NCBI GenBank assembly: GCA_029882395.1
Contig: JAOUKT010000002.1
Coordinates: 50,165 to 114,164 of the forward strand
Reading direction: 5' to 3'
Length of the DNA: 64,000 nucleotides
Source of the DNA: Gammaproteobacteria bacterium
Lineage (GTDB): Bacteria; Pseudomonadota; Gammaproteobacteria; SZUA-229
Below are positions 1,101 through 40,643 of the stretch, piece by piece. Both the position numbers and the translations under genes were made by a program. Every line of letters begins with the position of its first letter. The stretch's first letter is position 1. The notes beneath the pieces were generated by a model, which saw nothing but the letters and a program-made list of their open reading frames with translations, had not been told where the DNA came from and did not search any database.

Positions 1101-2282
1101 TCAAGCGGTCTTGGGCTGCATTGTGTAATGCGACAGGCTGTCAGCAAACTCTTTCAGTGACTGTATGCCCGTTGCTTCTGCTTTTACAACCCAGTCTTTC
1201 AGGGCCTTTACCAGCTCTTCGTTATTGCTGACTTGCGTTTGCCATACACTTTGTAGTTCTTTACGTTTTTCGTAAATTGTCTTTAGTACCGCATTTTGTT
1301 CTATGATTTCCTGAATGCGTTTGCGGTCTTGTTCAGTGATCAGTGATTCTTCGCGTGAAAGAATCTTGGCGGCTTTTGTGAACAGGGGCTTGTTATGCGC
1401 ATCTGCCTGAGCCGCTTCCTGATCAACCAGAGGCATTACCACTTTCTTTGCATAAGTGGCCATAATCTGGAAACGGTTATCGAATATCGCCGCTAAGGTG
1501 TCGGTATCGATAATGCTTTTGCTGGTATCCGTTTGCGCCTTAGGAGCAACACGCTTTATTTTTAATAAGCCCAGCAGTTTAAAGATATTGATATACATCC
1601 AGCCGATATCAAATTCATACCATTTGCTGGAAAGTTTTGATGAGCTGGGAAAAGTATGGTGATTATTATGCAGTTCTTCACCACCGATGAGGATGCCCCA
1701 GGGCACAATATTGGTTGATGCATCGGCGCATTCGTAGTTGCGGTAGCCCCAGTAGTGACCAATGCCATTAATCACGCCGGCAGCAAATAATGGAATCCAT
1801 GCCATTTGAACGGCCCAGACCGTGATGCCGGCAGTACCAAACAACAATACATCAATGGCTAAAAAGATCATGATACCGGTGCGACCATGGGGCCGATAAA
1901 CTTTACGTTCCAGCCAGTCTTCGGGCGTACCTTTACCGTATTTTTCCAGTGTTTCATCCGTCAGGCCAGCGCGATAAAGCTCTGCACCTTCTTTTAATAC
2001 TTTACCGATGCCCAGTATAACGGGGCTGTGGGGGTCTTCTTTTGTCTCGCATTTAGCATGGTGTTTACGATGCAGGGCGGTCCAGCCTTTAGTTGCCATA
2101 CCGGTTGTCAGCCAGAGCCATAAACGGAAGAAGTGTCTGAGGATGGGGCCTAATTCCAGGCCGCGGTGGGCTGAGTAGCGATGCAGGTAAACGGTAACGC
2201 TGACGATAGTAATGTGAGTAAAAAGCAAAGTCATACCGACTATTTGCCAGACTGAAAAATCTAAAAGACCGTTGTACCACAT
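1101..2282 (-). CDS. Membrane acyl-CoA/phospholipid delta-9 fatty acid desaturase (DesA-like, about 390 aa with C-terminal extension)
   Basis: Three histidine boxes HRYSAH, HRKHHAKCE and HNNHHTFP, plus N-terminal TM helices. Length matches the Pseudomonas DesA type. Confidence 0.85.
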   Translation of the reverse strand: MWYNGLLDFSVWQIVGMTLLFTHITIVSVTVYLHRYSAHRGLELGPILRHFFRLWLWLTTGMATKGWTALHRKHHAKCETKEDPHSPVILGIGKVLKEGAELYRAGLTDETLEKYGKGTPEDWLERKVYRPHGRTGIMIFLAIDVLLFGTAGITVWAVQMAWIPLFAAGVINGIGHYWGYRNYECADASTNIVPWGILIGGEELHNNHHTFPSSSKLSSKWYEFDIGWMYINIFKLLGLLKIKRVAPKAQTDTSKSIIDTDTLAAIFDNRFQIMATYAKKVVMPLVDQEAAQADAHNKPLFTKAAKILSREESLITEQDRKRIQEIIEQNAVLKTIYEKRKELQSVWQTQVSNNEELVKALKDWVVKAEATGIQSLKEFADSLSHYTMQPKTA

Positions 2283-5645: not shown

Positions 5646-7250
5646 TTGCTTGATAACCAGCTACCGGCATTGAGTTTGTATTCAAAATTTCATCAACGTT
5701 TAAAGGCTTTTAATTCGACCGCCTCGGCTGATATCTTTCAGTGTGGCGGTATCGGGCTAGAGAAAGAGAGCCTGCGGGTTTCCTCAGCCGGTACACTGTC
5801 ACAAAAGCCGCACCCTGTTGCGCTGGGTTCTGCTTTGACTCACCCCAGTATTACCACCGATTATTCAGAAGCATTACTCGAGTTTATTACGCCGCCTTTC
5901 AAAGACGTACTGGAGTCGATGGATTTCTTGCGTGATACCCAGCAGTTTGTCTATAGCCAGCTTGAAGACGAGTTGTTGTGGTCGGCCAGTATGCCTTGCG
6001 TGGTGGCCGGAGAGACCAGTATTCCACTGGCGAAATACGGTAATTCAAATCTGGGGCAGATGAAAACAGTTTATCGGCGAGGGCTGGGTCACCGTTATGG
6101 CCGGGTCATGCAGGTGATTGCAGGCGTGCATTACAATTATTCATTCAAAGATGAGTTCTGGTCACATTATCAGCAGTTAGAGTCCGATACCGGTAACGCA
6201 CAGGATTTTATTTCTGCGCGTTATTTTGATGTGCTGCGTAACCTGCAACGTTATGGCTGGTTAATTTCCTATCTTTTTGGTGCCTCGCCTGCCATATGCA
6301 AATCATTTCTTAATGGCCAGCAAACTAATTTGCAAGAATTTAATGAAAACTCATTTTATGAACCCTACGCAACCTCGTTACGGCTGGGTGAAATTGGGTA
6401 TCGGAATTCGCGCGAAAGCGAAGTTGGCATAACGGCCAATTACAATAGTCTGCAGGAATATATAGAGGCGCTAAGGTGTGCGATCGAAACGCCTTATGCT
6501 GGTTACGAGGACATCGGTATTGTAAAGGACGGCGTCTACCAGCAGCTTAATGCCAACATCCTGCAGATTGAAAATGAGTATTACAGCAGTGTCCGTCCCA
6601 AACAAATATTACAGGGGCTGGAAAAGCCGGTGAATGCCTTGCGCGACCGCGGGGTGAGGTATATAGAACTGCGCTCGGTGGATATCAGTCCGTTCGACCC
6701 GTTAGGCGTTAATGAAGACCAGCTTCGTTTTATTCAGGTGTTTATCATTTTTTGTTGTTTGCAGCAGAGCCCGGCTTTCGGCAGTGCTGAACGCAAAATG
6801 ATTGATGCTAATTTATTACTCACGGCGCACAGGGGGCGTGAGCCTGGCTTGATGCTGGATACACTAAAAGGCAAGCAAGAACTGAAACAATGGGCAGCTG
6901 AAATTCTTGATCAGTTAATGCCGCTGGCAGATGTGCTGGACCAGAGCCATACAGGCAGCCCTTACAAAAATGCCTGCGAAAAGCAGCTTGAATTAATAGA
7001 GCATGCTGATAAAACACCGTCGGCAATGATTTTGAATTCGATGAAAGATAATGATGAAGGTTTTTTCCATTTTTCCAAACGCATGTCGGATAAACATCAT
7101 CAGTATTTCAATAACCTGCCGGTTATCAAAGAGCGGCAGTCGCATTTTCAGGGCTTAGCTAAAGAGTCATTGTTAAAACAGCAGGCGATTGAAGCGGCGG
7201 ATCAGCAATCATTTAGTGAGTTTCTACAGATGTATTTTGATCGCTGCTAG
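5646..7250 (+). CDS. gshA: Glutamate--cysteine ligase
   Basis: GLEKESLRV...HPVALGSALTHPSITTDYSEALLEFITPP matches the conserved enterobacterial-type GshA N-terminus. Length about 530 aa. Start codon is TTG. Confidence 0.9.
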   Translation: MLDNQLPALSLYSKFHQRLKAFNSTASADIFQCGGIGLEKESLRVSSAGTLSQKPHPVALGSALTHPSITTDYSEALLEFITPPFKDVLESMDFLRDTQQFVYSQLEDELLWSASMPCVVAGETSIPLAKYGNSNLGQMKTVYRRGLGHRYGRVMQVIAGVHYNYSFKDEFWSHYQQLESDTGNAQDFISARYFDVLRNLQRYGWLISYLFGASPAICKSFLNGQQTNLQEFNENSFYEPYATSLRLGEIGYRNSRESEVGITANYNSLQEYIEALRCAIETPYAGYEDIGIVKDGVYQQLNANILQIENEYYSSVRPKQILQGLEKPVNALRDRGVRYIELRSVDISPFDPLGVNEDQLRFIQVFIIFCCLQQSPAFGSAERKMIDANLLLTAHRGREPGLMLDTLKGKQELKQWAAEILDQLMPLADVLDQSHTGSPYKNACEKQLELIEHADKTPSAMILNSMKDNDEGFFHFSKRMSDKHHQYFNNLPVIKERQSHFQGLAKESLLKQQAIEAADQQSFSEFLQMYFDRC

Positions 7251-9121
7251 ATTGTTAGCGTTTTTTTTTGTTCGTGATGAGCTGGCAGCGTAACAAAAAA
7301 CGTACTGCCGAATCCGTATTCACTTTCAAACCTTATTTGTCCCTGCATTTTTTCAACCAGCTTTTTGGTAATTGTCAGGCCTATGCCGCTGCCTTCAATT
7401 TTTCCGGGGTTAGCAAGTGCGCGTGAAAAAGGAGCGAAAATTGTATCTTTTAGTTCGTCTTTTATGCCAATGCCGGTATCTTTAATGCTGAGCTGGTACT
7501 CGCATTGATTTATAAGCCGCAGATCGATGGTTATCAGTCCCTTTGGTTTGTTGTATTTGATTGCGTTACTGATTAAGTTTATGCAAATTTGTTTCAGGCG
7601 CTGTCTGTCAGCCATGACAGGGCATTGGCCAGAGGACAGATGCCTGATAGTGACACTGTGCTGGTTGGCAATGGGTTTAACTAAGCCTATGCAGTCGATT
7701 AATATCTCATTCCAGTTCAGGACTTCCATAGTGCTTACATCTTTTCCTGATTCGATTTGAGACAAATCAAGGATTTCATTAACCAGTGATAACAGGTGTT
7801 TGCCAGCGGTTAAAATTTCGCCGGTGCTGTCAAGGATTTCAGGGTTGTTGTGGGCCTCGAGTCTGACTAGCTGGCTGTAGCCCAATATGGCGTTTAAGGG
7901 TGTGCGGATTTCATGGCTCATTTGTGACAGAAATTCAGATTTTGCATTGTTAGCATGCTCAGCAATAAGCTTCGCGCGCGCCAGCTGCTGTTCGGTTTGT
8001 TTGTGCTGCTGGATTTCATAATGTAATTTGCTGGTTCTTTCTTCAACCAGTTCTTCCAGCTGTTGCTGGTGCTGGTAAAGTGCTGTTTTTGAGTTGGCGA
8101 GCTTGCGGTTAATGGAAAACAAATAAAGTGTATAAACGAGAATGGCAATCAAAAAACCGATGCAAAGAAAAATTAACTCTGTTTCTTCATGCCATAGATT
8201 GCTAAGCGTGATGTGACGGTATTTGATATCAGCAATCAATTGATTGACTTCACTGTAATCAAGTGGTGCCTGCCAGTTAATATACCTGCCGTCAATGGCT
8301 GCCTTTGAATCCGCTTCTATCTCAAGCAGGGCATGAAAAACTTTGTTAGACAGTATGCTGTCAACATGACCAAGTACAGAAAACGGCCATTCCGGGTAAA
8401 GCCTTGTGCTATGAATACTGGAAAGCTTATCTTGCTGTTGATTTATAATTTTAAGCTTATTGGGGGCCAGATTGTTTTCTGCAATTAACTGCTCGATGAT
8501 GCTGCTTCTGACGACACCAATATCGACTGTTTTGTTGAGAACGGCATTGATAACAGACTGGTGGGAATTGTCATCGCTGAATTTAACATCGCTGCTGTCT
8601 TCATAAGGGTCGATGCCATGAAATAATAATTCCCTATAGACCATTTTCCAGCCGCCAAACGCTTCGGGGTGAACGCCCATGATGCTTTTGTCTTTTATAT
8701 CACTCAGAGTATTGATATCGGCATTGTCAGAATGGGTGAAAATAACGCTGGAGTAAAAGCTCGAGGCTAAACCATCGGCTTGTTTTTTGTTGAGGGTTAA
8801 AATGCGGGTTGCGCCGTAGCGTTTATTAAGGTCGGCATAAGCCAGAGGGGAGGTCAGTACAAAGTCAATGTTTTTATTTTTTACGCTGCGCCGCATTTTT
8901 GCGAAATCGATAATAGGAACTAGTGAGAAATGATAACCAGGAATTTTTTGGCTTAAGGCGGCGGCAGTTGCAGCCCACTGATGGTTCGCTTTTTCAATAC
9001 CGTTAATGGCGCGCACACCGATGCGTAACTCCTGGTCTTTATTTTGAGCTGATAATGTCGTTGTCACCAGCAATAATGAAATAAAGAAAAAACGTTTCAG
9101 GCGAGCAAGAATCTGTCTCAT
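7247..9121 (-). CDS. Sensor histidine kinase with periplasmic PhnD/SsuA-like solute-binding domain
   Basis: Signal peptide (start moved to the internal Met MRQILARL...), PBP-like periplasmic domain, one TM helix, coiled coil, HisKA H-box FLSQMSHEIRTPLNAILGYSQL, HATPase G-boxes. No receiver domain. Confidence 0.8.
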   Translation of the reverse strand: MRQILARLKRFFFISLLLVTTTLSAQNKDQELRIGVRAINGIEKANHQWAATAAALSQKIPGYHFSLVPIIDFAKMRRSVKNKNIDFVLTSPLAYADLNKRYGATRILTLNKKQADGLASSFYSSVIFTHSDNADINTLSDIKDKSIMGVHPEAFGGWKMVYRELLFHGIDPYEDSSDVKFSDDNSHQSVINAVLNKTVDIGVVRSSIIEQLIAENNLAPNKLKIINQQQDKLSSIHSTRLYPEWPFSVLGHVDSILSNKVFHALLEIEADSKAAIDGRYINWQAPLDYSEVNQLIADIKYRHITLSNLWHEETELIFLCIGFLIAILVYTLYLFSINRKLANSKTALYQHQQQLEELVEERTSKLHYEIQQHKQTEQQLARAKLIAEHANNAKSEFLSQMSHEIRTPLNAILGYSQLVRLEAHNNPEILDSTGEILTAGKHLLSLVNEILDLSQIESGKDVSTMEVLNWNEILIDCIGLVKPIANQHSVTIRHLSSGQCPVMADRQRLKQICINLISNAIKYNKPKGLITIDLRLINQCEYQLSIKDTGIGIKDELKDTIFAPFSRALANPGKIEGSGIGLTITKKLVEKMQGQIRFESEYGFGSTFFVTLPAHHEQKKTLTI

Positions 9122-9216
9122 TAGGCTTATATTGTTATAGTTGTATCTAAATTGAATGAGTCTGATTGTATAGAGACTCATATACCTTGTAAAGAATAAG
9201 GTTATTAGCAGGTGTT

Positions 9217-21678: not shown

Positions 21679-22857
21679 GTGTCTGAGAGAAAGTCTGTTT
21701 TGAAAATTATTGTATCAGTTATCATTTTAACGATTGCACTTTCTGCTCTGCTGCTAAGCGTTAATATCGCGTGGTTGCAGCTTGTCATAGCGCTGCTGAT
21801 GTCTGCCGGTTATGCCCTGGCTGTGTCGCTGTATTATCGTCAGCAGCTTCAGCAACAAAATGAAAAAGTACCCGATGAAGAATTTACAGATCAGGTGGGC
21901 AAGCTTGTGCACCAGTTTTGTGATTTATCCATTGAAGTAGACCCATCGATGGAAGCGATTTCCCAGATCAAAAAAATTGTTAATGATTCGGTGATCAAGC
22001 TCAATAACAGCTTCCTGGCGTTAGGTAGCTTATCGGATCAGCAAAGCAATGAGCTCGAAGTCCTGGTTAAACATTTTTCAAGTGATGAAGAGGGCGACTC
22101 GGTCTCTTTCAGAAAATTTGCCGTCGAGCTGGAGGTGGTACTTAAGCAGTTTGTTGACATAATCGTTGATGTTAGTGATAAAGGTGTTGATGCGGCATAT
22201 AAAATGCAGGATATGATTTCTGTGATGGATGAAGTGTTTGACCGGCTTATTGGTGTTCAAAAAATCGCATCGAAGACAAATTTACTGGCACTAAACGCTG
22301 CAATAGAAGCGGCCAGGGCCGGTGAAGTGGGCCGCGGTTTTGCTGTGGTTGCAGACGAGGTCAGAGAATTATCCCAACAAACCAGCATTTTGAATGAAGG
22401 TGTGCAGGAAAGGGCCAGGGCGGCTAAAGAAGGCCTGATATCGCTGAATGATGTCATTGGCGAGATAGCACAAATGGATATGAGTGCTACACTGAAAGCG
22501 AAAGACAATATTAATGACATGTTGACAAGTATCGACTCCGTTAACACAGAAGTGGGCACGGTTATCGACAATACGGCGAAAATTGCCTTTGATATCCGTG
22601 GCCATGTCTCAACGGCCGTGATGGCCTTGCAATATGAAGACGCAGTTGTACAGCTGTCGACACATATTGAAAACCTTCAAAATGGTATTAACGAGAAGAT
22701 AAGCGTTTTTCAGTCGAACTCAGCGACACCGGTTAGTCTTGCACAACTAATAAGTATCAATGAATCGATTCAGAAAGTGGATAGAGAAGTAACAATGGCG
22801 CTGGAAGATAGCATTAGATCAACCTCTGTTGATTCTGGTGAAGTGGATTTATTTTAA
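21679..22857 (+). CDS. Methyl-accepting chemotaxis protein with minimal sensor (two TM helices, almost no periplasmic loop)
   Basis: Highly conserved MCP signalling hairpin [34 protein letters not shown] start. Confidence 0.8.
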
Positions 22858-22872
22858 TATAGAGAAAGCATT

Positions 22873-23178
22873 ATGGGTATAAGTAATCGTTTTATAAAAG
22901 AAGCCGGAGAATATCAGATAGCAGTCACTGGCAAGTTTGATTTTTCGCTGTTAAATGAGTTTCGTGATGCTTATGAAAGTGCACCGACAGACGCTAAAAA
23001 ATATGTGATTGATATGCGTGCCGTGGACATGATTGATAGTTCGGCTTTAGGCATGTTATTAAAAATGAAAAGGGCACTGAATCTGGCCGATGGCGAGCTG
23101 GATATCATTAATTGCAGCACTAATGTTAAAAAGATACTGATGATAGCCAAATTTGAACTGATGTTCTCAATTCAGTAA
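22873..23178 (+). CDS. STAS-domain anti-sigma-factor antagonist (HsbA-like)
   Basis: STAS fold motif IDSSALGMLL and small size. Sits immediately upstream of the RsbU/RsbW-like fusion. Confidence 0.75.
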   Translation: MGISNRFIKEAGEYQIAVTGKFDFSLLNEFRDAYESAPTDAKKYVIDMRAVDMIDSSALGMLLKMKRALNLADGELDIINCSTNVKKILMIAKFELMFSIQ

Positions 23179-23180
23179 AT

Positions 23181-24830
23181 ATGAAAATACTTGTCGTTGA
23201 TGATATAGATAAAAACCGGTCTATTCTCGACCGTTATCTGACAGCCAAGGGTTTTGATGTGATTACGGCCTCCTCAGGTGCCGAGTCGATCGTCATAGTA
23301 CATCAGGAAGAGATTGACCTCGTGCTGATGGATGTGAAAATGCCGGATATGGATGGTTATGAGGCCACCCGTCAGATCAAAGACATAGCATCGGAAAATT
23401 ACCTGCCCGTTATTTTTGTCACCGCCTTATCAGAAGAAGAAGCATTAGAAGAAGCGCTGGCGGCAGGTGGTGATGATTTTATAAGCAAGCCAATCAGTTT
23501 TGGTGTGTTGTTGTCAAAAATCAATGCGCATTCCCGAATCAGGGAACTTCATATTGAAGTCAACCGAAAAAATAATGAACTAATCACGCACAATATTCGA
23601 CTTAATCGGGAGCATGAACTGGTCTCGCATTTCTTTGACCAGGCACAAAAATTTTGTTTTTATGACGAAAAGATAGTTCGTTCATTCAGCATTCCAATGA
23701 GTACTTTCAGTGGCGACACGATACTGGTTGTGCGCAGGCCGCATGGCGGGCTGGCGATATTAATCGGTGATTTCACCGGCCACGGTCTATCTGCCGCCGT
23801 TGGCACGCTGCCTGTCTCGCAGGTTTTTTTCCAAATGGTGGAAGAGAATGCATTTATTGGTGATATTGCAAGAGAGCTTAATAAACAGGTGAATCTGTTG
23901 TTGCCGGTAGAAATGTTTTTTGCGGCATCGATTATCGAGCTTTCAGCCAAAGGTGATCGCCTGATGATCTGGCATGGCGGCATGCCAAATGCCTATTTGC
24001 TTGACCAGAAGACGAATGAGTTAACCACAATCAAAAGTGCACACCTGCCATTAGGTGTTCGTGAACAGGAAGAGTTTGATGATTCTGTTCAGCTGTTTTA
24101 TGTCAACCAGCATCATAAGTTAGTAAGCTTTACCGACGGCTTGTCCGAGGCAGAGAATACTGATCTGGAAATGATTGAGGCAGACATGATTGAAGATGCC
24201 ATAGTGGGCAGTGATGATATTATCAAATCAGTTATGGCGCTTTACCAGAGTTACAGTGAAGGCATCGCGCAATCAGATGACGTCTCCATTATCGAGCTGT
24301 CGTGTTTGCCGCTTGAGGCAGAAATAAAACCAGCGAATCCCGCTAACATCAAGGCCACCGTGCCATGGAATATCGAGCTTGTTGTTAATGACTATTTGCT
24401 AAAAAATGATGTTGTACAAAATATCATAGAATTAATCGGTGACTATACGCCATTAAAAGATCACAAGGGTATAATTCACACGCTGTTAACAGAGCTTTAT
24501 AGCAATGCATTGGATCATGGTATTTTAGGCTTAGAGGGTGATGCTAAAAATAGCGTCGAGGCTTTTGACCGCTATTACCTCGAACGTCATAAACGCCTGG
24601 ATTCATTAAAAGACTCATGCCTCACAGTAAAACTCAGTTATTTACCAGAAGAGCAGACGGCAGTGCTTAAAATCATAATGTCTCATAACGGCCGAAGCTT
24701 TAACCTTGATAACATAAAAGCCGCAGATGATGATATGCATGGCAGAGGCATGGACCTGATCAATGCCATATGTGAAGAGGTTGATTACAGTGATGAAGGA
24801 CGCTGTGTTAGCGTCGCATATCGTATCTAA
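23181..24830 (+). CDS. Response-regulator receiver + PP2C (SpoIIE-type) phosphatase + HATPase anti-sigma kinase fusion (HsbR-like)
   Basis: REC (VVDDIDKNR...LVLMDVKMPDMDG), PP2C (GDFTGHGLSAAVG), and C-terminal RsbW-like N-box and G-box (ELYSNALDHG, MHGRGMDLI). Confidence 0.8.
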   Translation: MKILVVDDIDKNRSILDRYLTAKGFDVITASSGAESIVIVHQEEIDLVLMDVKMPDMDGYEATRQIKDIASENYLPVIFVTALSEEEALEEALAAGGDDFISKPISFGVLLSKINAHSRIRELHIEVNRKNNELITHNIRLNREHELVSHFFDQAQKFCFYDEKIVRSFSIPMSTFSGDTILVVRRPHGGLAILIGDFTGHGLSAAVGTLPVSQVFFQMVEENAFIGDIARELNKQVNLLLPVEMFFAASIIELSAKGDRLMIWHGGMPNAYLLDQKTNELTTIKSAHLPLGVREQEEFDDSVQLFYVNQHHKLVSFTDGLSEAENTDLEMIEADMIEDAIVGSDDIIKSVMALYQSYSEGIAQSDDVSIIELSCLPLEAEIKPANPANIKATVPWNIELVVNDYLLKNDVVQNIIELIGDYTPLKDHKGIIHTLLTELYSNALDHGILGLEGDAKNSVEAFDRYYLERHKRLDSLKDSCLTVKLSYLPEEQTAVLKIIMSHNGRSFNLDNIKAADDDMHGRGMDLINAICEEVDYSDEGRCVSVAYRI

Positions 24831-25148: not shown

Positions 25149-25505
25149 ATGAATAAGCTACTATTGATAAGTGTGTTGCTGATGAGTCAGCAGGTTATGG
25201 CGAATGAAGTAAAAATCGTTGATGTAAAGCTTGTTAAGAAAAGTGCTGAGCACTACCGGGTGGATGTGACTTTATTGCACGGCGATACAGGCTGGGATCA
25301 TTATGCGGACGGCTGGGAAATACTGGATCAGAATAAAAAGCGGATTGGGCAGCGAGTATTGGGCCATCCACATGTTAATGAGCAGCCTTTTACCCGTTCA
25401 CTGCAGAATGCTGAGATAGCAAAAGCTAACCAGCATATTTATATCCGGGCGCATGATAAAATCCATGGCTACAGTAAATTATATAAAGTTAAATTAAACA
25501 AATAG
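25149..25505 (+). CDS. Small secreted hypothetical protein (His-rich, signal peptide)
   Basis: Signal peptide MNKLLLISVLLMSQQVMA, followed by a roughly 95-aa mature protein of unknown family. Confidence 0.45.
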   Translation: MNKLLLISVLLMSQQVMANEVKIVDVKLVKKSAEHYRVDVTLLHGDTGWDHYADGWEILDQNKKRIGQRVLGHPHVNEQPFTRSLQNAEIAKANQHIYIRAHDKIHGYSKLYKVKLNK

Positions 25506-32968: not shown

Positions 32969-33848
32969 GTGATATTGAATGCACTGTTGACCAGGTCAAC
33001 AGTGACATTAGCTTTATAACGCTAAAGCTTAAAAGCGGCCATTTATAATTACTTTGATTCTGCTCATCAATGCGGCTGCTCGCTGCCATTCTGTCATGTT
33101 AGGCTAAACTGAACAGCAATACTATTTTGGTCTTAGAAAAGCAATACCTGTCAAACAGGGATGCCTAAGAATGAGAGTATTGGTAAATAATAGTTGTGTA
33201 ACGGCTTAGCATTATGTCTGGCATCATCAATTATTCGTAAAAACGCTATCGAGATTCTCCGATCAGCGTCAAAACAAAAACAAGACTTTGTCGATGTTCG
33301 TGACACCCTTTTAGCCATGCCATTTTACAAAAAAACATTTTCTGGCTGCTTTGTTGCGGCCAAGTAAGATTGCGCCGGCTTGTTGCTATCAGCCTAAGGC
33401 ATTAATGATGATGGCGCGCCTTATAGTCTGGATGGACAGATATCGGTCATTACAGTTTGAGGCGTTTAGACTGGCAGGCTTGAGGTCTCGTCTGCACAAA
33501 CAGTGCAAATACAAATGCCTAAAGCCGGAACAGGATTGTGTAATAGCTGATGCCAGTCAGCTACAAACCATAACTAATATAAGGTTGAAGATAAAGTTGT
33601 CATAGACTATTAATATAATGGTTATTGATCATATTTATGATTAAATCAGGTCTCACTAAGACGGAATTGAACCATCATAAAATAACCTCACAGGTTTCCT
33701 GCTCACATTTAATACGTTCGAACCAGGGAGCAGCCCAATTGTGGCTGTCGATATTCACAAAACCGAAACAGATTTTACGAAAAAAAAACCTAAAATTAAC
33801 TACTTAGGCACTCTTTTGTAAACGTACAGGCGGTAATGATAAAAATTT

Positions 33849-36800
33849 ATGTCAAATGGAACGATTAAATTAGGTGTGATGCCGCCGCTGACCGGTTTAG
33901 TGGGCATTTATGGTTCAGAAATTGTGCATGCTGCAGAAGTCGCTTGTCAGGAAATTAATGAGAATGGCGGTGTACTGGGTAAACCACTGGAACTGGTCAT
34001 AGAAGATGACGGCAGCCTGCCGCAAAGTGCAGTCGCAGCGGCTAAGAAACTGGTTGTTGAGCATCAGTGTAGTGCGATGATAGGAAACCTGCTCTCTAAT
34101 TCACGCATTGCCGTGGCCTATCAGGTCGCTGAGCCGAGCAGGGTGCCGCTAATTAATTTCTCATTTTATGAAGGCAGCATTCTCAGCCGTTATTTTTTCC
34201 ATTTTGGCGCCCTGCCCAATCAGCAAATAGATAAAATGATTCCATACATGTTTAAACAGTATGGCTCGCGCATGTTCTTTGCCGGAAATAATTATGAATG
34301 GCCGCGTGGCTCGATACATGCGGCTAAAAAAGTGCTGACAGCAATAGGCGGCGAAATAGTAGGTGAAGAGTATTGCCCGATAGGTGTCGCAGCGGAGCAG
34401 ATTGAGCAATTACTGGATCAGCTTGAGGCGGCCAAACCCGATGTTTTTGTGCCCTATTTTGCCGGCAATGACCAGGTTTTGCTATTGACACGGTTTACAG
34501 AAAGAGGCCTTAAAAAACGCATGGCCGTGGTGATGGGTCATTATGACGAAATGATGGCGAGCCAGTTACCTGCTGAAGTGCGTGAGGGCTTCTATTCAAG
34601 CAATACTTATTTCATGACCATTGATTCTGAGCAAAACCGGAATTACCTGCAACGCCTGGCGAGGCTGGCGGATGTTGACGGCATCTGGCCACAAGGTAAT
34701 GGCATACTGACAAACTTTGGTGAAGCTACCTATGCCTGTGTAAAAGCATTCGCTGTGGCTGCCAACTCAGCTGGCTCGGTGAACGCAGAAGACCTGGTAG
34801 ACGCGTTAAAAAATATAAACATATCGTCGCCTCAGGGCATATTAACTATGAACCCTGAGCACCATCATGCAACCGTTAATACGTACCTTTCGCAATGTCA
34901 GTCTGATGGACAGTTTAAAATCATTGAACGTTTTGGTGCCATCGAAGCGGCGATACCTGAGCGTTATAATCATCAGCGTATTACCGATCAGGCAACCGTT
35001 GAAGATGATATTCGACTTCAGGCACGGATACTGGAGCAAATGTCAGATGGTGTCTTGTTAATCAGTTCGAGTGACAGCTCAATTATCTATTCCAATGCGG
35101 GCGCCGAGCGCATCCTTGGCTACGCTGGCGGAGAAATGTCAGGGTTTTTATTGTCACAAATAATGGCTGACAATTTAGAAAACACGCAGACGAGTGAGAG
35201 CATCGTAAAACAATTGACCCAGAAAGGAGAGTGGCAGGGCGAAATTAGTTATGCGAAAAAACAAGGTGACGCTATCTGGTGCTTTGCCACAGTGACGACA
35301 TTCACACACCCGGTTTACGGTGAAGTATGGCTGGCTGTTAACCGGGATATTACTGAGGAAAAAAAATCAAAAAATGAAATTGAACAAAACCGGGCACGAT
35401 TCGAATCAATGTTTGAAGCAATTCCGGATGCTGTCATTTACGCCGATACAGACAGAAAGATAAGGCTGGTCAATAAAGCCGCGGTTAAGTTATTCGGATA
35501 TGAAATATACGAGCTAGAGGGCAGGTCAACTGACATTCTTTATGCCGATACAGAGGATTTCAAAGAACAGGAAAAGCGGCGATATACCAGTCATAGTAAA
35601 ACAGCTTCTCCGCGTTATGAAATGAACTACCGGTGCAAAGATGCAAGCGTATTTTCGGGTGAAACACTGGCCACGGCTGTGAGCTCATCGGCTGGAGAAA
35701 TACTGGGATATTTAGGCATTATTCGCGATGTGTCAGAAAGGAATCAGATCGATGCCATCTTTCGATCACTGGCCACCGGCGCGTCGGGTTTAAAATTCGA
35801 TGCCTTTATCAACGATGCACTGTATCGTTTAACAGAAATATACAAAAGTCCGTTTGCTTTTGTCGGGCAGTTATTAACCGATGGCAAACACGTGAAAACA
35901 CTGGCCGTGTATGCAAACGGTAGGATAGTCGATAACTTCGAATATGCGTTAAAAGGCTCTCCTTGTCAGGATGTTATGGATCATAAAAAAGAAATAATCC
36001 CTAAAGATGCATCGAAACTGTACGCCGGTGACAAGCTACTGGTGGATATGCAGATTGAAAGTTATTTTGGTTTACCACTGATTGCATCGGATAATTCAGT
36101 TATCGGTATTTTATCTATCATGGACACCAGGCCTGTAGAAGTGAGTGATTGGGCCAGATCTATACTGGAAGTGTTTGCCACGAGAATTGCCGTCGAGCTG
36201 GAAAGGGAGATTTCAAACCGGGAGCTGCGACAGCACAGAGAACATCTGCAGGAACTGGTAGAGCTGCGCACAACAGATTTGATCATGGCCAGAGATGAGG
36301 CCGAGAAAGCCAATGCGGCCAAATCAGAATTTTTATCGCACATGAGTCATGAGTTGCGTACGCCAATGAATGCGATACTGGGCTTTGGCCAGTTATTAGA
36401 AATGGATTCCGATACCTTTGACGAAACCCACAAGGCAAATATTCAAGAAATCCTTGATGCGGGTGGGCATCTGTTAACACTGATCAATGAAGTGCTGGAC
36501 CTGAGCAGAATTGAGTCGGGTAAGTTAGATATGTTGATGAAAGATATTGCTGTTGATGAGGTGTTATCCCAGTGTTTGAAGCTGGTAGCTAGTCATGCGG
36601 ACGAACGACAGATTGAAATCATAGACCACTTAAGTGGTAACGGTTATCATGTTAAGGCCGATTTGACGCGTTTGAAACAGGTCTTTGTCAATTTGCTCTC
36701 GAATGCGATTAAATACAACCGAAGCCAGGGTGCTGTCACACTGGATGCTGAGCTGACTGAAAATAATTATCTGCGCATCAGCGTATCGGATAATGGTGAG

Positions 36801-36992
36801 GGCATATCAAAGCAGGATATCGACAAATTATTCAAACCGTTTGAGCGCCTCAATGTCGTGGACAATGTTGAAGGTACCGGCATAGGGCTGGTGATTACAA
36901 AACACCTCGTTGGTTTAATGGGCGGCAATATAGGTGTCAAAAGTGAGCCCGGTAATGGCAGCGTTTTCTGGATAGAGTTGCCGCGTTGTTGA
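33849..36992 (+). CDS. Cytoplasmic sensor histidine kinase: type-1 periplasmic-binding-protein-like (LivK/AmiC-like) domain + 2 PAS + GAF + HisKA + HATPase
   Basis: No signal peptide or TM helix. PBP1-like N-terminal domain (LGVMPPLTGLVGIYG...), H-box FLSHMSHELRTPMNAILGFGQLL, and HATPase motifs at the C-terminus. Confidence 0.85.
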   Translation: MSNGTIKLGVMPPLTGLVGIYGSEIVHAAEVACQEINENGGVLGKPLELVIEDDGSLPQSAVAAAKKLVVEHQCSAMIGNLLSNSRIAVAYQVAEPSRVPLINFSFYEGSILSRYFFHFGALPNQQIDKMIPYMFKQYGSRMFFAGNNYEWPRGSIHAAKKVLTAIGGEIVGEEYCPIGVAAEQIEQLLDQLEAAKPDVFVPYFAGNDQVLLLTRFTERGLKKRMAVVMGHYDEMMASQLPAEVREGFYSSNTYFMTIDSEQNRNYLQRLARLADVDGIWPQGNGILTNFGEATYACVKAFAVAANSAGSVNAEDLVDALKNINISSPQGILTMNPEHHHATVNTYLSQCQSDGQFKIIERFGAIEAAIPERYNHQRITDQATVEDDIRLQARILEQMSDGVLLISSSDSSIIYSNAGAERILGYAGGEMSGFLLSQIMADNLENTQTSESIVKQLTQKGEWQGEISYAKKQGDAIWCFATVTTFTHPVYGEVWLAVNRDITEEKKSKNEIEQNRARFESMFEAIPDAVIYADTDRKIRLVNKAAVKLFGYEIYELEGRSTDILYADTEDFKEQEKRRYTSHSKTASPRYEMNYRCKDASVFSGETLATAVSSSAGEILGYLGIIRDVSERNQIDAIFRSLATGASGLKFDAFINDALYRLTEIYKSPFAFVGQLLTDGKHVKTLAVYANGRIVDNFEYALKGSPCQDVMDHKKEIIPKDASKLYAGDKLLVDMQIESYFGLPLIASDNSVIGILSIMDTRPVEVSDWARSILEVFATRIAVELEREISNRELRQHREHLQELVELRTTDLIMARDEAEKANAAKSEFLSHMSHELRTPMNAILGFGQLLEMDSDTFDETHKANIQEILDAGGHLLTLINEVLDLSRIESGKLDMLMKDIAVDEVLSQCLKLVASHADERQIEIIDHLSGNGYHVKADLTRLKQVFVNLLSNAIKYNRSQGAVTLDAELTENNYLRISVSDNGEGISKQDIDKLFKPFERLNVVDNVEGTGIGLVITKHLVGLMGGNIGVKSEPGNGSVFWIELPRC

Positions 36993-37054
36993 AAAGTACA
37001 GATAAAAAAAGAGTTAGGTTTATAGCATCATAAAAACATTACTGGTTAAATAAA

Positions 37055-37420
37055 ATGAAAAAAGTAGTTTATATAGAAGATAACCCCGCGAATCAACGAC
37101 TGGTAACACAGGTGTTTAAGCGCCTGCCCAAGCTGGAACTGCTGAATGCGGATGAGCCGATATCAGGTCTGGAATTGATTGAGAAACATCAACCGGACCT
37201 GATATTGCTGGATATTAATCTGCCGGGAATGGATGGTTTTGAAGTGTTTAAGCGTCTCAGAGAAAAACAAGGTTGCGAAAATACCCCTGTTATCGCTATC
37301 AGTGCCAACGCCATGCAAGAAGATATTGACAAGGCGCTGGCGCTTGGCTTTGATGACTATATTGTGAAACCGGTTAATATCAGTGCTTTGCTGCAGGTTT
37401 TAGAAAATACATTGCAATAA
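37055..37420 (+). CDS. Single-domain response regulator (CheY-like)
   Basis: VVYIEDNPANQ...LILLDINLPGMDG...KP motif. 121 aa. Confidence 0.85.
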   Translation: MKKVVYIEDNPANQRLVTQVFKRLPKLELLNADEPISGLELIEKHQPDLILLDINLPGMDGFEVFKRLREKQGCENTPVIAISANAMQEDIDKALALGFDDYIVKPVNISALLQVLENTLQ

Positions 37421-39993: not shown

Positions 39994-40635
39994 ATGAAAG
40001 TACTGTTAATTGATGATCACCCTTTATTTATTGAAGGCATCCGTGGTGTATTGTTAAAGCTGGCCGAAGGCATTGTGATCGAGGATGCCGGCAGCTGCGA
40101 AGAAGCGCTGGCGATGACTGCGACCGACGATGATGTGGATCTGGTTTTGCTGGATCTGAACCTGCCGGGCATGTCCGGTCTTGATGGCTTGCAGCTACTG
40201 CGTCATCAGTTACCTGCCAGCCCTATCGTTTTGCTCTCTGCCTCAGAAGACCGCAATAAAATCCTACACGCGATTGAACTGGGTGCGAAAGGTTATATTC
40301 CCAAATCATCGGCGTCAGATATTATTATCAGCGCCCTGCAACTGGTGTTATCCGGCGGGGTGTACCTGCCGATGGCGGTGCTGGAAACCATTAATTCAAC
40401 CCAGGCTAAAACCAGTAATGCCGAAGGCCAGACACTGACACTTCGCCAGGTGGATGTATTGAGCCTGTTAGCAGAAGGCCTATCCAACAAAGCGATTGCA
40501 AATCGGTTGAATATGGCAGAAAACACGGTGCGCGTGCACGTCAGTGCGATCTTGCGTTTTCTGGATGTGACCAACCGCACAGAAGCGGGAGTGGCCGCTT
40601 CGCGCATGGGCCTGTTATCCGAGAGTGAAAGCTGA
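39994..40635 (+). CDS. NarL/FixJ-family response regulator (REC + LuxR HTH)
   Basis: VLLIDDHPLF...LVLLDLNLPGMSG. C-terminal LuxR HTH (LTLRQVDVLSLLAEGLSNKAIANRL). Confidence 0.9.
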   Translation: MKVLLIDDHPLFIEGIRGVLLKLAEGIVIEDAGSCEEALAMTATDDDVDLVLLDLNLPGMSGLDGLQLLRHQLPASPIVLLSASEDRNKILHAIELGAKGYIPKSSASDIIISALQLVLSGGVYLPMAVLETINSTQAKTSNAEGQTLTLRQVDVLSLLAEGLSNKAIANRLNMAENTVRVHVSAILRFLDVTNRTEAGVAASRMGLLSESES

Positions 40636-40643
40636 TCGCGGCG

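Follow-up and report, generated by a model that had tools for sequence, protein, structure and literature searches.

The stretch analysed here, called the window below, comprises 64,000 nucleotides of metagenome-derived DNA from a gammaproteobacterium (GTDB lineage SZUA-229; GenBank assembly GCA_029882395.1, contig JAOUKT010000002.1, positions 50,165 to 114,164 of the forward strand). Between positions 33,849 and 37,420 it carries two genes in tandem, one for a soluble sensor histidine kinase that opens with a binding-protein domain of the Venus-flytrap type, and one for a small stand-alone receiver. What the locus encodes is a sensor kinase to which a binding-protein domain has been fused or, put differently, cytoplasmic sensing of the AmiC type, in which the pocket of the flytrap has been rebuilt. 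The features of the locus, with their basis in parentheses, are listed below; residue numbers are those of the kinase unless stated otherwise, and lengths are given in amino acids (aa).

33849..36992, + strand: sensor histidine kinase gene, 1047 aa, soluble and cytoplasmic (list of open reading frames (ORFs) and translation).
33861..34931, + strand: type-1 periplasmic binding protein (PBP) sensor domain, or Venus flytrap, of the amide/urea clade, residues 5-361 (Pfam, AF2 model, Foldseek).
34932..35045, + strand: linker with a PERY motif and a helix capping the first PAS domain, residues 362-399 (family alignments, AF2 model of residues 1-520).
35046..35357, + strand: first PAS domain (PAS1), residues 400-503 (Pfam PAS_9 match, 400-503).
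35397..35732, + strand: second PAS domain (PAS2), residues 517-628 (Pfam PAS match).
35799..36200, + strand: GAF domain, residues 651-784 (Pfam GAF_2 651-783 and GAF 701-784).
36318..36521, + strand: HisKA dimerisation and phospho-acceptor domain, residues 824-891 (HisKA E 3.5e-18; H-box SHELRTP).
36660..36983, + strand: HATPase_c catalytic domain, residues 938-1045 (HATPase_c E 9e-28; N, G1, F and G2 boxes).
36993..37054, + strand: spacer between the kinase and receiver genes, 62 bp (length verified).
37055..37420, + strand: stand-alone receiver, 121 aa (Response_reg at receiver residues 4-116, E 1e-27; nothing else of substance).

The kinase is a real, membrane-free, cytoplasmic bacterial sensor kinase with the domain order PBP1, PAS, PAS, GAF, HisKA and HATPase. 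An earlier note on this DNA, made from the sequence alone, had read the same order of binding-protein domain, two PAS domains, GAF and transmitter, and Pfam bears it out. The Peripla_BP_6 search that the note had proposed gave a strong match at residues 5-355 covering the profile end to end (positions 1-343 of 343; E 3e-67; 228.1 bits against a cutoff of 31.7), so that the type-1 PBP assignment stands; Peripla_BP_5 matches residues 6-361 (E 3e-62; 211.5 bits against a cutoff of 27). The scores of the kinase and receiver domains in Pfam are far above chance. The note had also described the protein as free of a signal peptide and of transmembrane segments. An in-frame TAA at 33840-33842, only 9 nt 5' of the ATG, rules out an N-terminal extension, and because the PBP profile starts at residue 5 there is no room for a signal peptide, so that a corrected start could not supply one either. 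In hydrophobicity the protein peaks at a 19-residue Kyte-Doolittle mean of 1.49, and no 19-residue window anywhere along its 1047 aa reaches the customary threshold of 1.6 for a transmembrane helix. The motifs of the transmitter are all intact, namely SHELRTP with H834 (codon 36348-36350), NLLSNAIKY, DNGEGI, FKPF and GTGIGL, and its H-box and its N, G1, F and G2 boxes place it in the class-I (HisKA) type, with predicted activity. A flavin-binding motif of the LOV type is absent from the PAS domains. The identical protein is present on two other public metagenome contigs, where NCBI names it 'transporter substrate-binding protein [Gammaproteobacteria bacterium]'.

The N-terminal domain (N-domain) is predicted to form a two-lobed Venus flytrap with a cleft. 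Its AF2 model (residues 1-372) has a pLDDT of 95.8, and Foldseek superposes it on the Caldicellulosiruptor urea-binding protein 8tg1 with a TM-score of 0.91 and on UrtA and AmiC with 0.90, all of them closed, ligand-bound forms. The nearest solved structure by sequence is again 8tg1 (5e-40), while the cyanobacterial UrtA structures 7s6e, 7s6f and 8hic match at 2e-36 to 7e-33 and AmiC at 8e-31. Compared with these amide and urea proteins (1e-31 to 1e-40), LivJ (about 1e-7) and LivK (1e-5 to 1e-4) are far weaker, and Liv entries appear at rank 21 or lower in the fold comparison. The N-domain belongs to the amide/urea clade of UrtA and AmiC rather than to the Liv clade, and the wording 'AmiC/LivK-like' used earlier was too broad: the AmiC type and the cytoplasmic location stand, whereas the likeness to LivK is true at the level of the fold only. 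The best NCBIfam match of the domain is the UrtA model TIGR03407, with 177.7 bits against an equivalog cutoff of 492.75. We rejected an identity as UrtA, since this cutoff is missed, the contact residues are changed (see below), and there is neither a signal peptide nor an adjacent set of transporter genes.

Searching with the whole kinase returned more than 100 proteins that open with the same flytrap, followed by PAS domains and a transmitter. The leader in front of the flytrap is just four residues long in 82 of the 120 top full-length homologues, and never exceeds 32. An exhaustive HMMER search over 1.84 billion cluster representatives (50%-identity clusters) added a broader view, with about 70 representatives at 41% identity or more, nearly all of them 700-1800 aa long and with the flytrap starting within the first 20 residues. 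Among 48 representatives examined with Pfam, PAS domains were found in 47, HATPase_c in 36, REC in 15, GGDEF in seven, EAL in five, an HWE kinase in five, HD_5 (HD-GYP-type) in two, Hpt in two and BLUF in one. A pattern scan of a genome collection gave at least seven close loci among the matches listed, and its degenerate patterns also caught ordinary UrtA genes. At the genome loci the architectures include PBP1-PAS-hybrid kinase in Bdellovibrionales, PBP1-PAS-HWE kinase in Myxococcales, PBP1-PAS-GGDEF-EAL in Gammaproteobacteria and Magnetococcales, and PBP1-PAS-GGDEF-EAL-BLUF in Gallionellaceae, and the family as a whole also spans Desulfobacterales, Sulfuricurvum and spirochaetes. The kinase of the window is one member of a widespread, uncharacterised cytoplasmic PBP1-PAS signalling family, not an isolated oddity.

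Within this family conservation is concentrated at the N-terminal end. Residues 6-524 of our kinase are 59.6% identical to a Bdellovibrionales hybrid kinase (L008, 945 aa), as against 34% in the kinase core, and residues 1 to about 525, i.e., the flytrap plus PAS1, form a portable sensor cassette that is conserved across outputs. The PERY motif, which sits at the end of the flytrap domain, has P370 and Y373 invariant and R372 almost so in family alignments, and the GAF domain is found in a minority of members only. A hybrid kinase of 1177 aa (P0128) is 54% identical over 100% of our kinase and 77% identical in the N-domain. Searches of the literature returned no paper on the family, with a limited coverage that leaves such an absence unproven, and according to a 2022 review SBP_bac_3 is the only domain of the PBP clan to have been studied in proteins of cyclic di-GMP (c-di-GMP) signalling. 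NCBI names many members (e.g., P0121, P0187, P0192, P0200, P0203, P0209, P0240 and others, 770-1400 aa) 'transporter substrate-binding protein' or 'ABC transporter substrate-binding protein', and because these names follow the first domain, the family is hidden from searches for annotated kinases or c-di-GMP proteins. The representatives also include giant proteins with repeated flytraps (P0254, P0302, P0308, P0313, P0316, P0333, P0345 and P0367), one of them 3745 aa long with nine matched stretches, and several of about 1500-1600 aa with a urea-type domain (WSYQEYFNS in the cleft columns described below) at each end.

Turning to the second gene, the receiver begins 62 bp 3' of the kinase and is 121 aa long, as the earlier note had it. 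A scan of the spacer found no terminator on the + strand, and co-transcription of the two genes is therefore likely. The receiver has all of the expected residues, E8, D9, D53 (codon 37211-37213), S83 and K105. Its residues 3-121 are 57-58% identical to the fused C-terminal REC domains of the family hybrids P0128, P0136 and P0133 (58% for P0128). A matching fused REC is present in 66 of the 120 top homologues, and P0128 exceeds our kinase in length by one receiver. Thus, in hybrid members such as P0128 and L008 the receiver is fused, whereas in the window and in its syntenic ortholog locus (L088; kinase 74% and receiver 83% identical) it is a separate gene. Since the ortholog likewise has a separate receiver, the split is real and inherited rather than an artefact of assembly. 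In NCBIfam the protein scores best against the receivers of BarA, HrmK and TorS, and CheY lies outside the top 25. Judged by these relationships, the 121-aa protein is the detached receiver of a hybrid kinase that underwent gene fission. The earlier description of it as 'CheY-like' is not the most fitting one, given that its closest relatives are receivers of hybrid kinases and that its surroundings (a SulP permease, a SPOR protein and an arginyl-tRNA synthetase, ArgRS) include no che or flagellar gene.

In His-Asp-His-Asp relays, the usual recipient of the phosphoryl group from a hybrid kinase is an Hpt. A few members of the PBP1-PAS family have a fused Hpt, and in Thioalkalivibrio sp. ALE17 the gene for a family kinase precedes one for a stand-alone REC, after which comes that for an Hpt-REC-GGDEF protein. 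The hybrid P0128 is followed by a REC-HD-GYP protein. Turnover of c-di-GMP is a recurrent output of the family. By homology, the receiver of the window is most likely the first aspartate of a phosphorelay.

It could instead be a terminal single-domain output of the CheY or DivK type, which once phosphorylated would bind to another protein, for instance the flagellar motor, a diguanylate cyclase or a second kinase. Single-domain receivers that work in this way are firmly documented, this one consists of a receiver only and has the full set of phospho-acceptor residues, and the 64-kb window yielded no Hpt. However, the closest relatives are fused receivers of hybrids from the same family, with BarA, HrmK and TorS leading the NCBIfam matches, no che or flagellar gene is adjacent, and the equivalent REC in Thioalkalivibrio precedes an Hpt-REC-GGDEF protein. 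We consider a terminal receiver unlikely, and the single-domain output to motility that the earlier note suggested is less likely than a phosphorelay in view of the fused-receiver homology; the phosphate sink that it named as the other option retains some standing.

In that second alternative, the receiver would be a phosphate sink or feedback element and the real output would be another regulator, for example the NarL-type protein at 39994..40635. This regulator (213 aa) and a hybrid kinase with multiple transmembrane segments (607 aa) are encoded by convergent genes at 39994..42467, within 3-5 kb of the PBP1-PAS kinase in the window, and both are found within a few kb of the family kinase in the loci L088 and L090 too. 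At L090, moreover, the family kinase has no adjacent receiver. Against this, the NarL-type regulator and the membrane hybrid kinase of L090 are 82% and 74% identical to those of the window, but the family kinases are only 52% identical, which makes the proximity most readily an inherited synteny of close relatives. The NarL-type regulator also adjoins a hybrid kinase of its own. We therefore set aside a functional link between the PBP1-PAS kinase and this nearby pair, for which synteny is the best explanation, and rate the sink as doubtful to the same degree as the terminal receiver, with the phosphorelay preferred to both.

What the kinase senses has to be approached through its pocket. The structure of UrtA with urea lists nine cleft residues, W120, S122, Y141, Q144, E146, Y190, F192, N246 and S274, and urea binding was significantly weakened or lost on mutation of S122, Q144, Y190 or N246, and lost with W120A (PMC10392092). 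In these nine columns, bona fide UrtA proteins and 8tg1 read WSYQEYFNS and AmiC reads YSYPEYYVT, whereas our kinase reads LSNFEYWAH (L81, S83, N103, F106, E108, Y149, W151, A205 and H231). Accordingly, W120, S122, Y141, Q144, E146, Y190, N246 and S274 of UrtA correspond to L, S, N, F, E, Y, A and H, with S, E and Y alone kept, and only the S, the E and the first Y of a Y-x-aromatic motif are common to our kinase and AmiC. The comparison with AmiC that was called for at the outset thus yields a pocket that matches neither AmiC nor UrtA. Both residues that accept the urea nitrogens have changed (Gln144 to Phe, Asn246 to Ala), Trp120 has become Leu and a His is gained. The Glu persists, as do the Ser and the Tyr, which bind the carbonyl oxygen. 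These changes suggest a cleft that would still recognise a carbonyl or amide group, but larger and more aromatic, with a ligand that is probably a larger, flatter and more hydrophobic carbonyl- or amide-bearing molecule.

A cytoplasmic sensor of urea or short-chain amides, resembling AmiC, is the reading that this pocket bears on most directly; it would bind urea, acetamide or formamide, and the kinase would report on the nitrogen source. The closest solved structures, which are urea-binding proteins and AmiC, the UrtA model as best NCBIfam match, and the retained Ser, Tyr and Glu all speak for it. However, the score is far below the UrtA equivalog cutoff, and the replaced residues include Gln144 and Asn246, either of which, when mutated, abolishes or strongly cuts urea binding (PMC10392092), as well as Trp120. 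Tyr83 and Tyr104 of AmiC are changed as well, and no urease, amidase, urt or AmiR/ANTAR gene is present among the ORFs of the window that were scanned. With the Gln and Asn acceptors replaced by Phe and Ala, and the Trp by Leu, urea becomes improbable as the ligand, the N-domain is probably not a urea sensor, and we regard the urea/amide reading as quite unlikely.

The nine columns are conserved in the family to a degree that the fold does not impose. LSNFEYWAH is identical in 118 of the 120 top full-length kinase homologues, P0128 among them, and in 61 of the 72 top cluster representatives, whereas ordinary exported binding proteins lower in the same HMMER list show dozens of differing signatures. 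Because exported binders in the same search vary so widely, the invariance marks the sensor clade rather than the fold. That the flytrap no longer binds a small molecule and is a dimerisation or protein-docking module, with the PAS and GAF domains as the true sensors, is very unlikely: AmiC does act partly through protein contact with AmiR (the 1qo0 complex is among the fold matches) and the kinase has three further potential sensor domains, but a pocket invariant to this extent across outputs and phyla, and common to bona fide binding proteins of ABC transporters, is the pattern expected of a conserved ligand site.

Those transporter components provide a lead to the ligand of the flytrap. A handful of exported homologues with twin-arginine (TAT) or lipoprotein signals are 47-61% identical to the N-domain. 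Four of them, P0035, P0046, P0067 and P0069 (51-61% identity), have exactly LSNFEYWAH, and P0071 differs at two positions; the four share the pocket signature of our kinase, yet they are components of exported importers, not signalling proteins. The gene for the exported homologue heads a LivHMGF-type ABC importer operon in all five contexts that were read, and each of these operons lies immediately beside genes for a molybdenum hydroxylase of the xanthine dehydrogenase (XDH) family, with three or four subunits. Often present in these contexts are also amide or formyl hydrolases (FmdA_AmdA, PF04199, Amidohydro_2), a FAA-family hydrolase, a RidA-like protein, and GntR or cupin regulators. For two hydroxylases with a split large subunit, the best solved match is the short NdhL of Eubacterium barkeri nicotinate dehydrogenase (1.4e-84 and 4.4e-63), and for an unsplit one it is the CoxL-annotated chain 8uem (2.8e-129), closely followed by quinoline 2-oxidoreductase (3.2e-124) and 6-hydroxypseudooxynicotine dehydrogenase (6.8e-118). 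NCBIfam gave only generic XDH-family matches, below their cutoffs, on the molybdenum hydroxylase operon, and none for two Amidohydro_2 proteins, one of which was also compared with PDB sequences and had no match there. A neighbouring clade with the signature LSNYEYWA[AS] (31-38% identity) adjoins an isochorismatase-family cysteine hydrolase, whose best solved matches are the cysteine hydrolase chains 6xix and 6xj4, RutB and biuret hydrolase; this context shows that small changes in the pocket columns track different substrates. Separately, P0067, P0069, P0071 and P0080 (loci L003, L006 and L094) combine a twin-arginine signal with a conserved Cys-rich C-terminal tail (…GGCVAS..GCRPL…CPPFP), which is unusual for an ABC binding protein.

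Because the changes in the pocket coincide with this molybdenum hydroxylase context, a pyridine-type N-heterocyclic acid or amide is a possible ligand, on which we would place a tentative expectation at most; nicotinamide or nicotinate specifically is considerably less likely. In a bolder proposal, the invariant flytrap would be a receptor in the cytoplasm that is dedicated to a pyridine-type metabolite, such as nicotinamide, nicotinate or one of their hydroxylated derivatives, and through it the whole family would couple NAD-related or heterocycle levels to phosphorelays and c-di-GMP turnover. We think this improbable, but if true it would reveal a previously unrecognised second-messenger input, and the interest would be much higher if the ligand were an NAD-related pyridine.

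Taken together, we propose a soluble, cytoplasmic two-component sensor built on a flytrap with a rebuilt pocket, whose detached receiver feeds a relay, and as an overall explanation of the locus we hold this to be moderately probable. In this model, the flytrap and its dedicated PAS domain would read the concentration of an intracellular small molecule, and the signal would then pass through the second PAS domain and the GAF domain to the class-I transmitter. The transmitter would autophosphorylate on H834 and transfer the phosphoryl group to D53 of the 121-aa receiver. This receiver is most likely not the final effector but passes the group on to an Hpt protein whose gene lies elsewhere. The architecture, the cytoplasmic location, the fold, the pocket signature with its invariance, the intact catalytic and phospho-acceptor residues and the homology of the split receiver to fused ones are observed; which class of ligand is bound, in which direction it regulates, what partner continues the relay and what the physiological output is are inferred.

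Several points weigh against the proposal. The pocket columns were mapped by alignment to UrtA and not taken from model coordinates. The class of ligand is guilt by association, drawn from homologues that are just 47-61% identical, and the hydroxylases beside these homologues are not orthologous between lineages, so that the association indicates a class of chemistry and not one pathway. On how closure of the cleft would be transmitted to a PAS dimer, the AF2 model of residues 1-520 is confident for the flytrap and for PAS1, but residues 377-394 of the linker have a pLDDT below 50, and the contact geometry between the two domains was not obtained. The PAS and GAF domains could bring additional or even dominant inputs. 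The relay lacks a visible partner, as neither Pfam on the ORFs scanned (small ones included) nor a six-frame motif regular expression brought up an Hpt in the window; two ORFs of about 120 aa, at 25149..25505 and 46132..46512, were considered and rejected on reading as not Hpt-like. Finally, the neighbours of the kinase, a SulP-STAS permease, a DUF5666 protein, a SPOR protein and ArgRS, are uninformative on both ligand and output.

Immediately upstream of the kinase lies an 880-bp gap without a convincing gene (32969..33848), the equivalent of which in L088 holds DegV and transglutaminase-core genes. Promoter and terminator scans of this gap were no better than those of shuffled sequence, and Rfam gave a snoRNA match at chance level only.

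Elsewhere in the window, a second kinase with a binding-protein sensor is encoded at 7247..9181 (- strand; 643 aa), with a type-2 PBP domain (Phosphonate-bd, residues 63-294), HisKA and HATPase_c; a stand-alone Phosphonate-bd protein adjoins the family kinase P0128 in L091. What resembles a partner-switching module lies at 21679..24830 (+ strand), with one gene each for a protein with an MCP signalling domain (392 aa), for a STAS protein (101 aa, 22873..23178) and for a REC-PP2C/SpoIIE protein (549 aa). This trio recurs in L091/L092, with products of 402, 101 and 550 aa, at a distance of about 4 kb downstream of the hybrid P0128. As for the host, the region 55215..63576 (+ strand) encodes two NIR_SIR proteins (dsrAB-like), a membrane protein resembling nitrate reductase gamma, a 4Fe-4S protein and a Pyr_redox_2/Fer4_20 protein (dsrL-like), and the window also has an aa3 oxidase cluster; the dsrAB-like and dsrL-like genes together with this cluster suggest a sulfur-oxidising gammaproteobacterium. 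A rhodanese gene and a pair encoding a GAF-HisKA_3 kinase and a NarL protein are found at 52065..54768. One ORF at 1101..2282 (- strand) combines a fatty-acid desaturase (residues 10-212) with a fragment of an ISL3 transposase (residues 269-385); a remnant of an insertion sequence has probably interrupted the gene or become fused to it. The 126-aa ORF at 46132..46512 (- strand), already mentioned, has no Pfam match, reads like a degenerate receiver and adjoins a gene for a 1180-aa protein with a PKD-like domain.

For most bacterial sensor kinases the signal is still not known, and the PBP1-PAS cassette is compact, soluble and found in many lineages. To identify its ligand once would be to annotate several hundred signalling proteins, and such an identification is practical here: the flytrap is soluble and is modelled with high confidence, and the same pocket occurs in importers whose operons hint at the class of substrate. 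The public names that present these proteins as transporter substrate-binding proteins need correction. In addition, the locus is a clean natural example of the fission of a hybrid kinase, with the receiver fused in some members of the family and detached in others, and the cassette could be a scaffold for a cytoplasmic biosensor.

Among known systems, the UrtA-type periplasmic urea binders are the best matches to the N-domain (8tg1, 7s6e, 7s6f and 8hic; 5e-40 to 7e-33, TM-scores of 0.89-0.91, root-mean-square deviations of 1.8-2.0 Å), but they are exported components of transporters, whereas the protein described here is a cytoplasmic signalling protein. AmiC of Pseudomonas aeruginosa (PDB 1pea, 1qnl and 1qo0) is closer in this respect, as it is likewise a cytoplasmic type-1 PBP without a signal peptide (TM-score 0.90), and both proteins keep the Ser, the Glu and the Tyr of a Y-x-aromatic-P-R motif. 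However, AmiC is not part of a larger protein and works by sequestering AmiR, an antiterminator of the ANTAR type, while the domain of the window forms a single chain with PAS-PAS-GAF and a histidine kinase. In this fusion it recalls the Venus-flytrap kinases BvgS and EvgS and the HK29s of Geobacter, which combine a solute-binding fold with a PAS domain and a transmitter, often as hybrid or unorthodox kinases with a phosphorelay. Those kinases sense with type-2 PBPs, which are periplasmic and either lie between transmembrane helices or follow them. The kinase described here follows the same principle of solute-binding protein, PAS and kinase, but with a type-1 PBP that is N-terminal, wholly cytoplasmic and free of any membrane anchor.

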